Positions 22,018-40,543 of a stretch of DNA of 64,000 nucleotides are shown in pieces. A program made the position numbers and the translations under genes. Every line of letters starts with the position of its first letter. Within the stretch, counting starts at the first letter, position 1. Source of the DNA: a phage. Under the pieces are notes generated by a model that made no database searches, had not been told where the DNA came from, and saw nothing but the letters and a program-made list of their open reading frames with translations. Location of the stretch: the sequence record PZ386971.1; one strand, given 5' to 3'.

Positions 22018-22080
22018 CAGCGTTTGCTCCGGCGTTTGTTCTTCATCTTTCTTGGCTTGTCTGTCATGTTCCTGTCCACG

Positions 22081-22116
22081 AAAAAGGGATAGAGCAATAA
22101 TACCCTATCCCCTTTT
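22081..22116. terminator. intrinsic terminator hairpin
   Basis: gggatag...ctatccc stem flanked by AAAA and CTTTTATT. Confidence 0.4.
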
Positions 22117-23134: not shown

Positions 23135-24247
23135 TTAAAAATTAAACGGATAACGACGACCACCATTGTACTCCATTCGCTGCAATATGAAAATTGCGGT
23201 GAATGGTAAGCAACCCAGCAGAACAATAACCACAACTTCCCAGGTCTTGAGTTCCCGCCACTTCAGGTACTCCATTTCCTTCATCTCAACGCGGTTGTAG
23301 CCTTTGGTGATGTTAGCGACAACATCAGCCATGACACCGACGCCCATGTCGTGGCCTGTGAGAGTCATGCCATTGCGAGAGTGTAGTTCACGGTTATACA
23401 TACCATCAGCGAACGAAGTGCTCTTACCCCAGTTGATCTTCAGATCTTTGCTGATGTCGGTCACGACGATAACGTCGTTCTTTTTACCACCATCCCAAGC
23501 ATAGACCAAGCCCTGGAAGTATTCAACTGGCTGACCGGATGTCACAACCCAGACGATATTGACCTGACGTGAAGCACCTAATGTTTTCAGAGTATTGTTC
23601 AGATAGTCGTTCCAGTATGTGGTCGGTAACGCCAGGCCGGACACATTCAACACACGAGTGACACGATAGTAGTCATAGACCTCAGGGTACTTGGGAATCT
23701 TGTCTTTGAAGCGCTCAGCAAACTGCTGGTCCGAGCGAGAGAACAGAGAGTCCTTGTTACCCAGCACATAGTTCATGTAGGAATGCTCACGGGCTGCGGG
23801 TTCGCCGATCTGAACCTGCGCCCAGCGCGGCGGTTGACCAAGACCACGGCGATCAATACGGTCAATCGTCAGATTACCGACAGTAGTCAACACATCCCAG
23901 TCCACGTCATATGAATGCTCATAACATGTACTGCAATGGCGAGTGCGGGTACAGGACTTGCTACTGCCGGAGCCAGAGCACGATGTGGTGTAGTAGCAGT
24001 TGCATTCATATGAATGCTCACAGCTCACCTTATTCCGCTCCTTTGCAGTGACGTACCCGTTCAGGATCTCAACATCCCCTGAACTGCCAAGGGAGAACGC
24101 AGCATAAGCCCCCGCCTGAATCAGACAGGATAGCACCACTACAATCGCGGTCGCTATCAGAGTCTCTTTCGGCTCATGGGTCTTGCGGTGGTAGGCCACA
24201 AACAGGATAGCCAGTACCAATGGCACACCAAACAGGAGGTAGATCAT
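23135..24247 (-). CDS. membrane protein with N- and C-terminal TM helices and Cys-rich extracytoplasmic domain
   Basis: 370 aa; hydrophobic helices at both ends; Cys-rich segment CEHSYECNCYYTTSCSGSGSSKSCTRTRHCSTC; adjacent to LemA-like gene. Confidence 0.5.
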   Translation of the reverse strand: MIYLLFGVPLVLAILFVAYHRKTHEPKETLIATAIVVVLSCLIQAGAYAAFSLGSSGDVEILNGYVTAKERNKVSCEHSYECNCYYTTSCSGSGSSKSCTRTRHCSTCYEHSYDVDWDVLTTVGNLTIDRIDRRGLGQPPRWAQVQIGEPAAREHSYMNYVLGNKDSLFSRSDQQFAERFKDKIPKYPEVYDYYRVTRVLNVSGLALPTTYWNDYLNNTLKTLGASRQVNIVWVVTSGQPVEYFQGLVYAWDGGKKNDVIVVTDISKDLKINWGKSTSFADGMYNRELHSRNGMTLTGHDMGVGVMADVVANITKGYNRVEMKEMEYLKWRELKTWEVVVIVLLGCLPFTAIFILQRMEYNGGRRYPFNF

Positions 24248-24700: not shown

Positions 24701-24743
24701 AAAGAAAGGGGAACGGGCTAATATTAACCCATTCCCCTTTATT
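24701..24743. terminator. intrinsic terminator hairpin
   Basis: ggggaacggg...cccattcccc stem flanked by A-rich and T-rich runs. Confidence 0.4.
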
Positions 24744-26206: not shown

Positions 26207-26567
26207 CTTTCGCTTCCTCTTCAGGAGCCACAGCTTCAGGCTCGGGAGCCAACTGAATGTCTTCTGGTTTCACAAACCCCATCGGACGTTCCCACATATC
26301 GATGAAGCGGCGGTCGGCGGTCACAAACCAAAGACGGGCTGCAGTGTGGGTCTTACCCGAGATGAACATCTGGGCATTCGTCTGGGTACGGAACGGAGCC
26401 GCCTGCAACCACTTACCGAAGTCTTTGGACGACGGATTGGCATTCAGCTGGAACTGAGGGATGACGCAGTTCTTTTCAGGAATAAGGCGCACGGCAGTAA
26501 TGTGCTTGGCGTTTCCGGTGTAGTCAATCGCAACAGCCACAGCATCGCGAGGGATTTGAATTTTCAT
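26190..26567 (-). CDS. hypothetical protein
   Basis: 125-aa ORF. Confidence 0.45.
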   Translation of the reverse strand: MKIQIPRDAVAVAIDYTGNAKHITAVRLIPEKNCVIPQFQLNANPSSKDFGKWLQAAPFRTQTNAQMFISGKTHTAARLWFVTADRRFIDMWERPMGFVKPEDIQLAPEPEAVAPEEEAKDASFI

Positions 26568-26767
26568 TTTGGTTCCTTGAATATTTTATAGCCAGCAGCG
26601 CCGATAGCCATAATCGCGCCGATACAATACAACATGGTCAGGTTCATCTTCTCTGAGGTTGTTAAGTCCAGAGGGGTGAAATGATAGGCTAGGGCAGTAC
26701 ACATTGAAACGGCTGCCATAACCAGACCAATGAACAACAGATAATTAGACAACCGTTTCATGATCAC
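26564..26767 (-). CDS. small membrane protein
   Basis: 67 aa, two hydrophobic helices. Confidence 0.4.
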   Translation of the reverse strand: MIMKRLSNYLLFIGLVMAAVSMCTALAYHFTPLDLTTSEKMNLTMLYCIGAIMAIGAAGYKIFKEPK

Positions 26768-27681
26768 CCCTTCTTCATCAGGTCAAGGAGAGAGCGCGAC
26801 GCTGCCTTCGTTGCTTCTGGCTGGGCGCTCGCCTTGGTTTTAGTTTTGGATGCCTTCTGCGGCTTCTCAGGGACTCTGTGCGCCAAAGGATCCTGGCCGC
26901 CGATTTCACGAGTCATCGGATTGGTTTCACAGTAGGCGTAGAAGTCTTTGGTGTCCATGTTAACTTCACGCAGTTCGGACCGTATCTGATGACAAATCGC
27001 ATTACCCACAACCCACAGCGGGGCGTCGTATGGGAGCACCGCCAACTCGGACTGCTGTTTGGTCGTGAACTCCTGGGTGTTGGTCTCTGGCGCTTTATAC
27101 AGGATATCCTGTCCGCTGTAATCATCAACAGCCACAGTGAAGCCCAGCGCCAGCATTTCGGCCTTCGACTTCTCAAACTCCTTGGAGTAAGATTCGTTGC
27201 GTGACCAGCCGGAGTTCCCTGCTTCTTTACCAGATCGACCACGGATACGAGCATCGTACTGATAGCGGTCGGGGTACGCAAAGTACAGCAGCGCCAATGA
27301 TTCAATCGGATAGTTCTTGAACATCCATTCAGGACGCCATTTGTCCGACAGCATGAGGGGTTCACCCTCACACACCAGAGTGTATCCCTGAACCAACCAG
27401 CACTTGATTAGATCACGAGCAATATCGCCTGAGCCTGTAGCAGCATGGATTGCATCCATTGAAGTCCAGGAAGCCAGGCCGGATTTGTTAGACACGGTGT
27501 ACTGTCCAACGAAGATTAACTTCAGCTCTCCGAACTTCAGGCCAAACGGGCGAGTCTTGTCACCAACGGTGTAGGTCAGTTCGGTAGGCTCCAGCTTCGT
27601 ACGGAGCCATTCGATGAACTGGACCACTCTCGTACCCTTGCCCGTGGCCGAGGTGCCTTTCACTACGATAATTTTTGCCAT
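26764..27681 (-). CDS. P-loop kinase (candidate 5-hydroxymethyl-dU DNA kinase)
   Basis: Walker A GTSATGKGT at N-terminus; 305 aa. Confidence 0.55.
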   Translation of the reverse strand: MAKIIVVKGTSATGKGTRVVQFIEWLRTKLEPTELTYTVGDKTRPFGLKFGELKLIFVGQYTVSNKSGLASWTSMDAIHAATGSGDIARDLIKCWLVQGYTLVCEGEPLMLSDKWRPEWMFKNYPIESLALLYFAYPDRYQYDARIRGRSGKEAGNSGWSRNESYSKEFEKSKAEMLALGFTVAVDDYSGQDILYKAPETNTQEFTTKQQSELAVLPYDAPLWVVGNAICHQIRSELREVNMDTKDFYAYCETNPMTREIGGQDPLAHRVPEKPQKASKTKTKASAQPEATKAASRSLLDLMKKG

Positions 27682-27995: not shown

Positions 27996-28775
27996 CTATC
28001 GGACGTATTGATAATGACTAATCAGGCGGTTCACCACTTCGAAGATATTGTGGTTCAGGAAGTCGAAGTGATTCTGGCCTTCTACTGGTTTAATATAAAG
28101 CATGTCTTCCGAATTCGAAAGATCCAGTTTTTCATAATTGCCCTGAGGAACAAAGATGACAAAGATGTTGTTCAGGCCGCACGGCTCGACATACTTCGGA
28201 TTGTCATCAATCAGGACATCGCCAGCCAGCAGATGCTTTTCGTCGGTACTGACAAACCCGTTGAAGATACCAGGGAACTTATCATAGACAAACTGACGCT
28301 TGCTGCGCTCGTGTTCCGGCTCACACTTGGACACTGCGATGAATTCAACATTGTCGAAATCTTCAAGCAAGATCTCCTTCAGATTTACCAGGAACTCGTA
28401 AGCGCCGGGGAGCGGGTTCATCTTGGCGTACAAGTCAGGGCGACGCCACCAGTCCATAGGATCGTTACCGCTTGGCACACGTTGTTTGTGCATCCCCAAT
28501 TGGACTTCATGGTATAGCCACGCCGGATGCGCACGTTCACGCATCAGAATAGCCAGGTCGCCAGCATGGGACATATAACACTCTTTGGTGATCGGCTGGA
28601 ACTGGTATGACTTATGTTCCCCCGTAGCGATAGCAGCGGCGGCGATGTTCTCTTCGTTAAACCACTGCACCCAAGGGGAGAGGCTGTCGACCAACGTCAG
28701 GTCAACATCCACGAGGACGCGATACAGGCCACCGACCTTTGATTTCATATCATAGATACAAACCAGGTTGTTCAT
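27996..28775 (-). CDS. HAD-superfamily hydrolase (nucleotidase-like)
   Basis: HAD motif I DVDLT and C-terminal GDVLIDDN. Confidence 0.5.
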   Translation of the reverse strand: MNNLVCIYDMKSKVGGLYRVLVDVDLTLVDSLSPWVQWFNEENIAAAAIATGEHKSYQFQPITKECYMSHAGDLAILMRERAHPAWLYHEVQLGMHKQRVPSGNDPMDWWRRPDLYAKMNPLPGAYEFLVNLKEILLEDFDNVEFIAVSKCEPEHERSKRQFVYDKFPGIFNGFVSTDEKHLLAGDVLIDDNPKYVEPCGLNNIFVIFVPQGNYEKLDLSNSEDMLYIKPVEGQNHFDFLNHNIFEVVNRLISHYQYVR

Positions 28776-29122
28776 TTGTCTTCCTCAACTTTATCGTAGC
28801 CTGTAGCAACACACTGTTCTTCGGTACAATCTGCATACAGAACGACGGAGGCCTGCTTCACGTAGGTGATGCAGTGGTAAGTTTCGTCTTCCTGGATGGA
28901 ATCGTCATAGTTGCAGACAGTTTGGAGCGGACCCGGAGTAGTGTTGTCCAGTGCTGCATGCGCCTTGATGGTGTCTTCCATCTTGGACACGGCCTGCTCA
29001 TTGGTGAACGTCGGCGTGTCAAGGTCTACAGTAGAAGCAACGTCCAGAAGGGTGGAACACGCAGTGGTAGAGAAAGCCAGAGCACACACCAGAAGAATCT
29101 TATTGAGTTTCATTTCAATCAC
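28772..29122 (-). CDS. putative lipoprotein (signal peptide with Cys lipobox-like site)
   Basis: N-terminal KILLVCALAFSTTAC followed by polar acidic domain with four further Cys. Confidence 0.45.
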   Translation of the reverse strand: MIEMKLNKILLVCALAFSTTACSTLLDVASTVDLDTPTFTNEQAVSKMEDTIKAHAALDNTTPGPLQTVCNYDDSIQEDETYHCITYVKQASVVLYADCTEEQCVATGYDKVEEDK

Positions 29123-29175
29123 CTGTTTGTCAAAGGGTTAACAGGGGGAATTATATCCCCCTTTGGTTTATTGAA

Positions 29176-32175
29176 TCAACCTTTCTTCTTTTGCATCATG
29201 GCAAGAAGGTTCACACGGCGCTTGTGCGACCAGCCGACCACGTCAAGGATGGACTGAATCGGGTCAATGAAGGACTTCTCAAAGGCCGCCTGATAATCCA
29301 CCCATTTGCCCAGACCAAGCTCCTCAGGGAAGAACTCAGGATATGCGAAGTAATTCTGGCCGAATGGGTTGCCTGGCTTCAACAACACCATCTGTACCTT
29401 ATCACCCGACTCGATCATCGGTAGACCCAGATCTTCGTTCTTCTCAACCAGACGGTTGTAGCCCACACACGCCTTGGCAGCAAAATGAGCACCAGAGATG
29501 AACGATCCGTCAGCAGCCACACACTTCTCTATGTCGGACACGCCGGAAGCCTTGGCGATATCGTCTACAGAGAGTTTCATGTACTCCTCTTTGTACTGGG
29601 AGATGAGCGCCTGTACTTCCTCTTCAGTGCCGAGTAGGATCTTCTCATAGCACTTGACAAGACGCTCACGACACCATTCCGGCGTGGTGGACTTGCGGGC
29701 TTCCAGACCTTTGAACTTGATCTTCGGCTTCTCGTACTTGATACCCTCACTGTCGTACACGGCCATGGCATACATCTTCTTGGCTCGCCAGACAGCGGCT
29801 GACGCAATGACCTCACGCTCCCATACCATGCGCTGTTCAAATCCGTTCATGGTGTTACACAGAAGCTGTGCCCACTCATTGGTCTTCGGCTGGTAGTTGT
29901 CTTTGATCCATTGGTCGATATTATCAACCATAGCATGATGGTCAGTAACATCAGGCCACAACTGCTTGACAAGACGCTCAATGCAGATGTAGTTGGAGTC
30001 GGTATCACCTGCGATGACGAAGTCCTGGCCTGTTGTACCACACAGCTTGTTCAGATAGTCATCAGTGTAACGCTTGTTCCACTTGTTGATCAGCTGACCG
30101 GATGTGGTGATGGCTTCGGCAATGTTGAGGTTGAAGTACTCTTTGAACCAGACGTTCGAGATAGCGCCATAACCTGCGTTCATCAAGATCTTCAGACCTT
30201 GCTGTAGGGTGTCTTGAGCAACGCCCAGATCTTCCCACTTCTTCATCACTTCGGTCAGTGCATCAAGATCAATGTTCTTGTGCTCTTCATACCACTCTGG
30301 GTCATAGTAGCGAGACTTCATGGCAGACTCAAGATGGAAGTCGCCCTTCGACATCTCTTTACACCAGCCAGCCCACTGCTCATACTTCAGACCCTTGGCC
30401 TTCTCTACTTTACGGTCGCTGTAGATACCACGCATGATTTCAGACAGGAACGACATCTTCTCGTTGCTGAAGAATTGAACGTTCGGCGTGAACGACACGT
30501 TGTAGCGGCGCAGGGTTTCAAAGTGGAACTCACCCAGGGCAACCAACTCATCAACAACCTGCAGGCGTTCGTCAACCGCACGCAACAGCTTGTCGTGAAG
30601 GGCTTTCATCAACCGACGTTTGTGCATCGGCGTTGCCATGTTATTCATCTGAGCAGCCAGCTCTTCACACATAGCCTCAATAATCTCGCGGCGCTGGTGT
30701 TTGTCGCCAACGATAGTCTCTGGACCGAGGTTGTACTGCTGAATGATGTGAGGATACAGGGAATTCAAATCTTCCGAGAAGACCCAGAAGTAGATTCCTG
30801 GTGTCACATCCATGACGTATGCACCCTCAAAGTCGGTCGGACCATCGTATACACGCTGGATCTTAGGCACTATCCCCTTCTCGTACAGGCGATAGTAGCA
30901 CATGGCCAGCCACGGAGCCACAGTGCCCAGACCGTCTTCATAGTTGGACTTGGTGCGGTAGGCCAGGACGAACATCAGCTGGAGCAGGCGCAGCTTCTGT
31001 TCAAGTCGCCATACCAGCTTAACGTCTTTGATACCATATCGGGTGTGTTTGCAGTAGTCGTTGAAGTACAGATCAAAGAGCGACTTGCTCTCACTGTAGT
31101 CCATCTTCTTCTCACCCAGCTCACAATACGCAATCCAGTCAAGAGAGTAGCGTTCACGGGTGGTGTACGTGTGTTTCTTGTAGATCTGCATATAATCGAG
31201 CATAGGACAGCCCACGAACTGATACGTCGTGATATCGCCCTTCTTATCGCGAATGATACGCTTCTTAATGATACCCCAAGGACTGAGGCGCGACGTTTCA
31301 GCCTCACCCAGAACCTGATTCATGCGCTCAACAAGATACGGGCTATCGAACGTTTCAATGTTCCAGCCTGTCCAGCCGTCGAACTGACGCTCCGACCAGA
31401 AGTCAAGGAAAGATCGCAGCAGATCTTGTTCGGTGGTGAACTCCTGATAAACAACCTCAAGGCCGCCGATCTCTTTGTCTTCGGTGTCGTATGCGAATTT
31501 GTTACGATCTTTGGCACAGGGCACACCCCAGACCATGAACTTATTGGTCGCCATATCCTGAAGCTGGATCAGGGTAATGGGGAACGCCGCATTCATGTCT
31601 TGGGTGATCTTGCCGTTGCTGTCAATGATAGGGAACTGATCAGTGACGTTGTTGCTGATGAAAGAACCAGGGAAGTGCTCACGGACAAAGTCATGGTTGG
31701 CCAGCACTTGTTTATGGAAGCGGCGAATGCGCGCCTCATTCCCTTTGAACGTCTGCTGCTCAATAGTTGGGTGAGGGAATGGACCTTTGGTCATCTTTCC
31801 GTCTTTCCACCCGGCGGAGAATACTTCGATATCGAGGTTAGCAATATGGATGTTGGAGTAATCCGGCTCAATCTTTCCAGGAAAGCTATGGGCGATGAAC
31901 TGGTATGCATAATCGGTCTGCCCATAAATGGCAGCACCCTGGACTTCCTTGTACTCTTCAAGATAGTTGTCAGCGTCACGCATGGAAGGGAACTGCTTGG
32001 CTACCAGGGGTTCATTGAGAAGGCCGACCTTTTCAACATTTGAATAGTCAGCCGTGGGTAAATAGAGAGTGGGTTCGAATTTCTTTTTCAACAGACGGCG
32101 ATTACCCATGTCATCTGCAATTCGAATCAACAGGTCATTGCCCCTGCGGGCAACGTTCGTATAGAAAACGGTCAT
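29176..32175 (-). CDS. DNA polymerase, family B (T4 gp43-like)
   Basis: 999-aa ORF with exonuclease NLDIEV motif and polymerase motif C (IAGDTDS). Confidence 0.9.
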   Translation of the reverse strand: MTVFYTNVARRGNDLLIRIADDMGNRRLLKKKFEPTLYLPTADYSNVEKVGLLNEPLVAKQFPSMRDADNYLEEYKEVQGAAIYGQTDYAYQFIAHSFPGKIEPDYSNIHIANLDIEVFSAGWKDGKMTKGPFPHPTIEQQTFKGNEARIRRFHKQVLANHDFVREHFPGSFISNNVTDQFPIIDSNGKITQDMNAAFPITLIQLQDMATNKFMVWGVPCAKDRNKFAYDTEDKEIGGLEVVYQEFTTEQDLLRSFLDFWSERQFDGWTGWNIETFDSPYLVERMNQVLGEAETSRLSPWGIIKKRIIRDKKGDITTYQFVGCPMLDYMQIYKKHTYTTRERYSLDWIAYCELGEKKMDYSESKSLFDLYFNDYCKHTRYGIKDVKLVWRLEQKLRLLQLMFVLAYRTKSNYEDGLGTVAPWLAMCYYRLYEKGIVPKIQRVYDGPTDFEGAYVMDVTPGIYFWVFSEDLNSLYPHIIQQYNLGPETIVGDKHQRREIIEAMCEELAAQMNNMATPMHKRRLMKALHDKLLRAVDERLQVVDELVALGEFHFETLRRYNVSFTPNVQFFSNEKMSFLSEIMRGIYSDRKVEKAKGLKYEQWAGWCKEMSKGDFHLESAMKSRYYDPEWYEEHKNIDLDALTEVMKKWEDLGVAQDTLQQGLKILMNAGYGAISNVWFKEYFNLNIAEAITTSGQLINKWNKRYTDDYLNKLCGTTGQDFVIAGDTDSNYICIERLVKQLWPDVTDHHAMVDNIDQWIKDNYQPKTNEWAQLLCNTMNGFEQRMVWEREVIASAAVWRAKKMYAMAVYDSEGIKYEKPKIKFKGLEARKSTTPEWCRERLVKCYEKILLGTEEEVQALISQYKEEYMKLSVDDIAKASGVSDIEKCVAADGSFISGAHFAAKACVGYNRLVEKNEDLGLPMIESGDKVQMVLLKPGNPFGQNYFAYPEFFPEELGLGKWVDYQAAFEKSFIDPIQSILDVVGWSHKRRVNLLAMMQKKKG

Positions 32176-40225: not shown

Positions 40226-40543
40226 TCCGGAGCCTCACTCGATTGATTAAATGTCTCCGTTATTATATTGGGAGTATGTTTATTGAATATAAACACAGGA
40301 ATGACCAACAAAATAGGAGCGCGGTTTATTAATAGGTAAAAACTACTTTTCTACAACATCAAGAAACTGTATCCTAACGCAGTGCCCTTCGAGTTGTGAG
40401 TGTCAACGAACAACGAGAAGCAGCCTCCATGGCTGTGGAATGGTGCTGCCCGCATAGGGCGGTGTTACGAGCGAGGGCGTCAGCCCCCTCGCGAGTTATA
40501 TTCGAATAAATTAAACGCGCGCGAGAGTTTTGATTCCCGTTGG

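Follow-up and report, generated by a model that had tools for sequence, protein, structure and literature searches.

A predicted DUF7292 lipoprotein encoded behind the DNA polymerase gene of a ViI-like phage, a tentative candidate for envelope immunity

Introduction

Receptor jamming by a phage lipoprotein has been established for Llp of phage T5, which acts on FhuA (PMC9586334), and for Rtp45, which acts on LptDE (PMC12685063). Rtp45 has a size of about 6 kDa and contacts LptDE where the outer membrane borders the periplasm (PMC12685063), the llp gene of T5 adjoins the gene of the receptor-binding protein pb5 (PMC9586334), and the PDB holds both FhuA-Llp (PMC9586334) and LptDE-Rtp45 (PMC12685063). 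In phage T4, the polymerase gene 43 is followed by imm.1, imm, 42 (dCMP hydroxymethylase) and beta-gt, and Imm is the classical superinfection-immunity protein. In this work we analyzed a small gene that follows the DNA polymerase gene in a stretch of 64,000 nucleotides of phage DNA (sequence record PZ386971.1), hereafter called the window. An earlier reading of the bare sequence (the original prediction) had proposed that this gene encodes an early expressed lipoprotein with a role such as that of T5 Llp. We find a gene under strong selection whose product is very probably an exported lipoprotein of the family DUF7292, and we tentatively propose that its acidic domain provides envelope immunity after phage entry rather than receptor jamming.

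Results

A Core Gene of a Narrow Protein Family

The phage DNA around the gene is 97.5% identical to the Escherichia phages PC3, PH4 and A221, and the values are about 91% for the Agtrevirus Gloob and about 90% for the Limestoneviruses of Dickeya; these identities point to a ViI-like myovirus of the Ackermannviridae (Aglimvirinae) as the source of the window. The reading frame of 116 codons that had been read from a GTG codon (28772..29122, minus strand) is indeed present, and this frame begins 53 nt downstream of the gene of the family-B DNA polymerase (Table 1). The true start is almost certainly the ATG at 29113, which gives a product of 113 amino acids, and not the GTG at 29122, since this GTG falls inside the Shine-Dalgarno sequence located 5 nt upstream of the ATG, and since the homologues all begin at the equivalent Met. 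The orthologues of CBA120 and Det7 have no in-frame GTG, and the gene annotated in PC3 has 342 nt.

The ratio of non-synonymous to synonymous substitution rates (dN/dS) of the mature region lies between 0.056 and 0.082 in the comparisons with Gloob, LIMEstone1, CBA120 and Det7; the gene is real and is under strong purifying selection. The comparison with CBA120 revealed 38 synonymous and 16 non-synonymous changes, which fit the minus-strand frame and ruled out the overlapping plus-strand frame 28739..29257 as coding.

The protein matches the Pfam family DUF7292 (PF23964) with 181.1 bits against a cut-off of 27 (residues 1-112, profile positions 1-110 of 112) and phrog_3748 with 208 bits. It shares 99% identity with the proteins of PH4 and ZQ1 and 92% with that of CBA120. 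The basic observation of a lipoprotein is not new, as the family is catalogued as a domain of unknown function and has already been annotated in this sense: Marshall_19 is named "putative conserved lipoprotein", several GenBank orthologues "putative (conserved) lipoprotein" and one UniRef member "Lipoprotein". Searches for a characterized relative in Pfam (beyond DUF7292 itself), NCBIfam, PADLOC and the PDB sequences gave none.

The DUF7292 family covers a very narrow range. When 5.8 billion proteins were searched with a word index, 25 clusters came back, all at least 59% identical, and a profile scan over 1.84 billion representatives yielded just six matches, all of them more distant members of the same family; a further profile search raised the family total to 38 clusters. 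Among isolated phages, tblastn found the gene in 278 records, compared with 279 records that hold a polymerase at least 60% identical to that of the window, which is why we regard the gene as core to the enterobacterial Ackermannviridae clade. The orthologues listed belong to Kuttervirus, Agtrevirus, Limestonevirus, Taipeivirus, Miltonvirus and Nezavisimistyvirus, and the hosts listed are almost all Enterobacterales. Between phages that infect Salmonella, E. coli, Shigella, Dickeya and Enterobacter, i.e., five host genera, the identity of the mature domain is still about 90%, so that any target of the protein would have to be conserved as well.

Export and Lipid Anchoring

The n-region, h-region and lipobox at the N-terminus of the precursor (Table 1) conform to the PROSITE pattern PS51257, which is defined by a positive n-region, a hydrophobic h-region and a lipobox Cys at position 15-35. 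Position -3 of the lipobox is Thr in the window protein and Leu in many relatives. The lipobox Cys is kept in 38 of the 40 family clusters; at the residue that follows it (+2), 23 clusters have Ser, 15 have Ala and none has Asp. In lipoproteins of Enterobacterales, Asp at +2 is the signal for avoidance of the Lol system. Since +2 is always Ser or Ala, sorting of the protein to the outer membrane by Lol is predicted. The window protein is thus very probably an exported lipoprotein, and the claim that its signal peptide ends in a Cys is borne out by the PROSITE pattern, by the conservation of this Cys and by the +2 residue of the outer-membrane type.

The two clusters without a lipobox represent two distant, uncultured lineages, which have lost the tether behind the signal and carry ordinary cleavable signals of the signal-peptidase-I type. 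An N-terminal export signal is therefore found in every family member, and, because these two anchorless lineages keep it, the invariant feature of the family appears to be export to the periplasm rather than attachment to a membrane. Both anchorless relatives, P0031 (L003, 4286-4630) and P0030 (L004, 4790-5068), have DUF7292 in the same slot between the polymerase gene and the NT5C-like gene as the window, and in L004 it is surrounded by three extra small open reading frames (ORFs). We looked for an isolated phage with the anchorless form of DUF7292 and found none.

Two alternative signal peptides occur among the orthologues, MKLNKILLVCALAFSTTAC being the short and MKLKKDVLFHKIM…SLSAC the long type. 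Within a genus one is exchanged for the other despite identical mature domains, as seen for CBA120 versus Det7 and for KpS110 versus KWBSE43-6. The short type shows no non-synonymous changes across genera, against two to five synonymous ones. This pattern suggests either mosaic exchange of signal peptides or an unusual constraint on the 5' end of the gene.

An Acidic Domain with Two Probable Disulfides

The mature part of 95 amino acids (about 10 kDa) contains 19 Asp and Glu residues against 5 Lys and Arg residues and has an isoelectric point (pI) of 4.05. Four further Cys residues are located at positions 67, 81, 96 and 101, and every family member has exactly four Cys in its mature part. The acidic mature domain with four further cysteines that had been described before is thereby confirmed, and its Cys count extends to the whole family.

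AlphaFold (AF2), run on the family alignment, left signal and tether disordered, with a predicted local distance difference test (pLDDT) score of about 49 for residues 1-30, and gave for the core one helix (38-55) and four strands (63-70, 78-85, 90-96 and 101-108) with a pLDDT of about 90. A second AF2 model, made for the anchorless P0030 (33% identity), showed the same helix and four-strand meander with a pLDDT of about 95. The strand register places C67 opposite C81 and C96 opposite C101, so that two disulfides, C67-C81 and C96-C101, each stapling a hairpin, are likely in these models. Within the fold, variability is highest in the stapled loops 71-77 and 97-100 (1.9 and 2.2 bits) and lowest in strand 3 (0.6 bits); such variability is ordinary for loops and gives no evidence of an arms race. 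Searches with Foldseek returned nothing below an E value of 0.47 from the PDB and only the family itself from a viral set. Moreover, no catalytic family was matched in Pfam, in the PDB sequences or in other profile searches. As modeled, the protein resembles a module for binding more than an enzyme, and the fold names no target.

The general topology resembles that of small cystatin/NTF2-like periplasmic binders such as the colicin M immunity protein Cmi (2xgl), PepSY domains (YpeB) and VirB8-like domains, with 3-15% identity and with four strands here. The protein does not fit the cystatin superfamily as defined by a helix on a sheet of five strands and by inhibitory hairpins with QxVxG and PW, and the topology is no evidence of common descent or shared function. 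It is nevertheless one of the points in favor of the main rival of an immunity role, namely that DUF7292 is a host-envelope takeover factor which acts in the periplasm on an enzyme or sensor of the host, such as a protease, an enzyme with muralytic activity or a sensor of envelope stress, and by inhibiting it keeps the envelope stable and productive until programmed lysis, with no part in exclusion. A cystatin-like or PepSY-like topology and an acidic surface (pI 4.05) would suit such an inhibitor, a core gene under strong purifying selection would fit a conserved host target, and the isolated phages with the gene are listed almost only with hosts of the Enterobacterales, the gene being absent from a Vibrio phage relative (see below). 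On the other hand, this rival points to no particular target, inspection of the sequence showed no cystatin motif QxVxG, and the fold scores are generic. We consider this rival unlikely, although it is the strongest of those weighed here.

The same data bear on receptor jamming of the Llp/Cor/Rtp45 type, in which the lipoprotein would attach to the outer-membrane protein used as terminal receptor from the periplasmic side, close the outer loops of this receptor allosterically, block the adsorption of further phages and protect progeny from debris of cells. A lipoprotein of small size that is directed to the outer membrane, with disulfides and in a pre-late context, is what this explanation calls for. 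However, the family profile found no chain among the PDB sequences at E<=10, Foldseek gave no fold match in the PDB, and the mature protein of about 10 kDa compares with about 6 kDa for Rtp45. A mature domain with about 90% identity between phages of five host genera, and two lineages with a soluble protein that lacks both anchor and tether, speak against jamming as well. Furthermore, llp adjoins pb5, but in the window the ORFs of tailspike size form a block at 44.4-60.3 kb of the opposite strand, and more than 15 kb separate it from the lipoprotein gene. We know of no protein that has been established as the terminal receptor of Ackermannviridae. Receptor jamming is thus quite improbable. Of the original prediction, the lipoprotein itself stands (lipobox Cys, +2 residue, four conserved Cys and signal architecture), but its analogy with T5 Llp found no support, as each membership test that could be run came out negative.

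Gene Context and a Promoter-Like Element

On the minus strand, the lipoprotein gene is followed by an NT5C-like gene, DUF7254, the 5-hydroxymethyldeoxyuridine (5-hmdU) DNA kinase HMUD2, two small ORFs and an amino-acid:DNA transferase (ADDT); these downstream genes code for the thymidine-hypermodification enzymes of ViI-like phages. All relatives examined, down to the most distant metagenomic ones at 33-36% identity, show the order polB, DUF7292, NT5C-like, DUF7254 and HMUD2, with ADDT next wherever the fetched region reaches far enough. The lipoprotein gene and the NT5C-like gene overlap by their stop and start codons (ATGA) in the window and in the phages closest to it, and most other lineages are similar, which suggests that the two genes are translationally coupled.

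This strict synteny, together with the coupling, would speak for a component of thymidine hypermodification, and in a variant of this explanation the four invariant Cys of a non-exported, cytoplasmic protein could bind zinc. Against both stands the N-terminal export signal of every family member. In Vibrio phage D503, whose polymerase is 50% identical, the polymerase gene is directly followed by the NT5C-like gene, with the kinase and the downstream genes kept; as D503 keeps these genes without DUF7292, the latter is not obligatory for DNA modification. The spacings CX13C and CX4C on neighboring strands of the model would suit hairpin-stapling disulfides better than a zinc knuckle. We rejected membership in the hypermodification pathway on the grounds of export and of D503, and leave it a very slim chance.

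A lysis component, either an o-spanin (Rz1-like) or a periplasmic lysis regulator, would share with DUF7292 the outer-membrane lipoprotein with conserved Cys. Indeed, o-spanins are lipoproteins as well, but their periplasmic domains are typically short and proline-rich, and the domain found here is compact and folded. In phage Marshall, the i-spanin and an Rz-like spanin are encoded at 82.2-83.2 kb, about 70 kb from the orthologue Marshall_19 at 11.4 kb, and a spanin pair of this phage family is also reported in PMC10892097. No gene of an i-spanin or type-II membrane protein is adjacent to DUF7292, its neighbors being polB and the NT5C-like gene, and it would be transcribed together with replication and modification genes and not with late genes. 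The o-spanin reading was rejected on this gene context, and a lysis function of any kind is hardly credible.

Just after the stop codon of the polymerase gene lies a GC-rich hairpin (Table 1). When the spacer between the polymerase gene and DUF7292 was folded lineage by lineage, a stable GC-rich hairpin at this place was kept in all seven lineages, with different stems (GGGGGA/TCCCCC, GGGGGC/GCCCCC, AGUGGGG/CCCCACU and GGCUGUA/UACAGCC). The stem sequences differ by compensatory change and the structure is kept, which implies that the structure is under selection. In the window and close relatives, the loop of the hairpin holds a -10-like hexamer with a TTCAATAA box 12 nt upstream of it. The arrangement TTCAATAA-N12/13-TAtAaT recurs at six other minus-strand sites of the window, with boxes that start at 40287, 39648, 37415, 33095, 24746 and 22122 in addition to the one at 29175, and one of the sites is just upstream of a tRNA-Asn gene. 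In total, the window contains 12 TTCAATAA boxes, compared with 2.4 expected by chance. This looks like a family-specific promoter class. In T4 middle promoters, the MotA box is found at about -30, where the TTCAATAA box sits here. A literature search on the TTCAATAA motif returned nothing relevant. At three sites (29143-29162, 24705-24740 and about 22080-22115, minus strand), the -10-like hexamer lies in the loop of a GC-rich, terminator-like hairpin.

The promoter-like element and the coupling to enzymes that are needed at replication argue for a pre-late expression of the lipoprotein gene, from which we infer its probable timing.

Table 1. Positions of the DUF7292 gene, its parts and adjoining features in the window.
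Feature	Position	Strand	Remarks
DUF7292 lipoprotein precursor, coding sequence	28772..29113	minus	113 aa; stop codon 28772-28774; supported by Pfam, PHROG, alignment and dN/dS
Predicted signal peptide, codons 1-19	29057..29113	minus	MKLNK / ILLVCALAF / STTA-C19; PS51257, cluster conservation
Predicted flexible tether, residues 20-36	29006..29056	minus	STLLDVASTVDLDTPTF; low pLDDT; deleted in P0030 and P0031
Acidic globular domain (modeled), residues 37-113	28775..29005	minus	helix 38-55, four antiparallel strands, invariant C67/C81/C96/C101
Shine-Dalgarno sequence AGGTGA	29119..29124	minus	5 nt 5' of the ATG; contains the GTG start proposed first
Promoter-like element TTCAATAA-N12-TATAAT	29150..29175	minus	upstream of the lipoprotein gene; recurs and is kept in relatives
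GC-rich hairpin	29143..29162	minus	GGGGGA / TATAAT loop / TCCCCC; closely behind the stop codon of the polymerase gene
Family-B DNA polymerase gene	29176..32175	minus	upstream neighbor, 999 aa
NT5C-like (5' deoxyribonucleotidase) gene	27996..28775	minus	downstream neighbor; its ATG overlaps the lipoprotein stop codon (ATGA)

Other Observations at the Locus

The polymerase gene of the window is uninterrupted, and its 5-hmdU kinase gene (26764-27681) contains no endonuclease. In PC3 and LIMEstone1 the polymerase gene is split, introns being annotated in LIMEstone1, and an endonuclease gene is located at the kinase position in PC3, LIMEstone1 (F-LimXI in both) and KpS110. Between the kinase gene and an ORF of 125 amino acids, the same operon contains a gene (26564-26767, minus strand) for a hydrophobic protein of 67 amino acids with two apparent membrane spans, which belongs to phrog_4514 and has no Pfam match. 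We considered this protein as a relative of T4 Imm, to which it proved unrelated by BLASTP.

Two further lipoprotein-like genes deserve mention. The ORF of 370 amino acids at 23135-24247 (minus strand) has no Pfam match, and the product from its internal GTG at 24199 begins with a segment ending in …IATAIVVVLSC that is flagged by the lipobox pattern. A "SPFH band-7 family lipoprotein" (gp200) is listed in a paper for Vi01-like phages; its identity with the ORF of 370 amino acids is not established. At another place in genomes of Kuttervirus, a second "putative conserved lipoprotein" is annotated next to a tail-tube-like gene, as in phage Marshall, where it has 216 amino acids (Marshall_69; L018, 13593-14243).

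Discussion

We propose that DUF7292 is a lipid-anchored periplasmic binder which gives envelope immunity, and as a whole this explanation has in our estimate a probability of roughly 0.4. It builds on the coding status of the gene, its family, the signal with its lipobox, the fold and the synteny, all of which are shown or strongly supported. According to this proposal, the precursor of 113 amino acids would be exported by Sec, receive a lipid on Cys19 and be cleaved by signal peptidase II. The acidic domain, about 75 residues long, would then be held in the periplasm by a flexible tether of about 17 residues; in this domain one helix would pack on a four-strand beta-meander and each of the two putative disulfides would staple a hairpin with a variable loop. 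The gene would be the first cistron of a pre-late operon, placed behind TTCAATAA-N12-TATAAT, coupled to the NT5C-like gene and leading into the thymidine-hypermodification genes. The protein itself might act as a non-enzymatic binder or inhibitor of a conserved target exposed to the periplasm, and its role might be envelope immunity, i.e., broad superinfection exclusion after phage entry.

Taken by itself, an exclusion or immunity role in any form is possible at clearly worse than even odds. Within such a role, a block after adsorption, as in the case of T4 Sp or Imm, seems more likely than the masking of a receptor which changes along with the tailspikes. A more specific version would make DUF7292 the superinfection-immunity determinant of Ackermannviridae with a hitherto undescribed mechanism, a tethered, doubly disulfide-stapled, cystatin-like domain that binds a conserved, periplasm-exposed step of entry. 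The target may then be the muralytic enzyme of the incoming tail hub or a host factor for DNA passage, and the gene may be a counterpart of the imm.1-imm pair of T4 in the same post-polymerase slot. We regard this specific version as doubtful.

Several points weigh against the proposed immunity role. The likeness to T4 is purely positional, a lead and not evidence, and T4 Imm.1 is itself a protein to which no function has been assigned. Homology to Imm.1 received a probability of 4% from hhalign, confined to the signal peptides, and a BLASTP E value of 0.007 over 21 residues; homology to T4 Imm.1 or Imm was rejected, as there is no detectable similarity and the Pfam families differ (DUF7292 versus DUF5481). 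Exclusion genes are often accessory, and it is untypical for them to be core and to evolve slowly. The preferred role draws on sequence, models and context, our literature searches found nothing on DUF7292, PF23964 or Vi01_193, and the timing of expression is deduced, since the literature yielded no time-course transcriptome of an Ackermannviridae phage. Finally, signal peptidase I may cleave at TTA-C in this single sequence.

Knowledge of this family is of practical interest, since Ackermannviridae such as ViI, CBA120 and LIMEstone are widely used or proposed as biocontrol agents against Salmonella, E. coli O157, Klebsiella and Dickeya. Because a product with an export signal is encoded in essentially every isolated relative with a polymerase at least 60% identical (278 versus 279 records), DUF7292 could affect the behavior of phage cocktails through mutual exclusion, or it could condition the host envelope. 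If it is indeed an exclusion or immunity factor, it would represent a structurally new family among the few characterized phage lipoproteins and would provide the first handle on the function of T4 imm.1 beside imm.

The closest proteins are the members of PF23964 and PHROG 3748 themselves, i.e., CBA120 orf238, Vi01_193, LIMEstone1 ORF183 and Marshall_19, which belong to the same family, occupy the same slot after polB and show no differences. With the locus of T4, the window shares a small Cys-rich lipoprotein gene between the polymerase and base-modification genes. T4 imm.1 (AF158101; L014, 26636-27013; Pfam DUF5481) encodes a protein of similar size, with 125 amino acids, a lipobox LGLAGC and four mature Cys, which is annotated as "hypothetical predicted membrane protein" and is, to judge from these features, a predicted lipoprotein; Imm, in contrast, is an inner-membrane protein and not a lipoprotein. 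Llp, Cor and Rtp45 resemble the window protein in being small, phage-encoded, outer-membrane-anchored lipoproteins that face the periplasm, contain one or more disulfides and are made before lysis (PMC9586334; PMC12685063), but the window protein differs from them in its tether and its folded alpha+beta domain. DUF7292 is a well-defined but ordinary uncharacterized protein which, among the envelope lipoproteins known from phages, stands apart in its structure.

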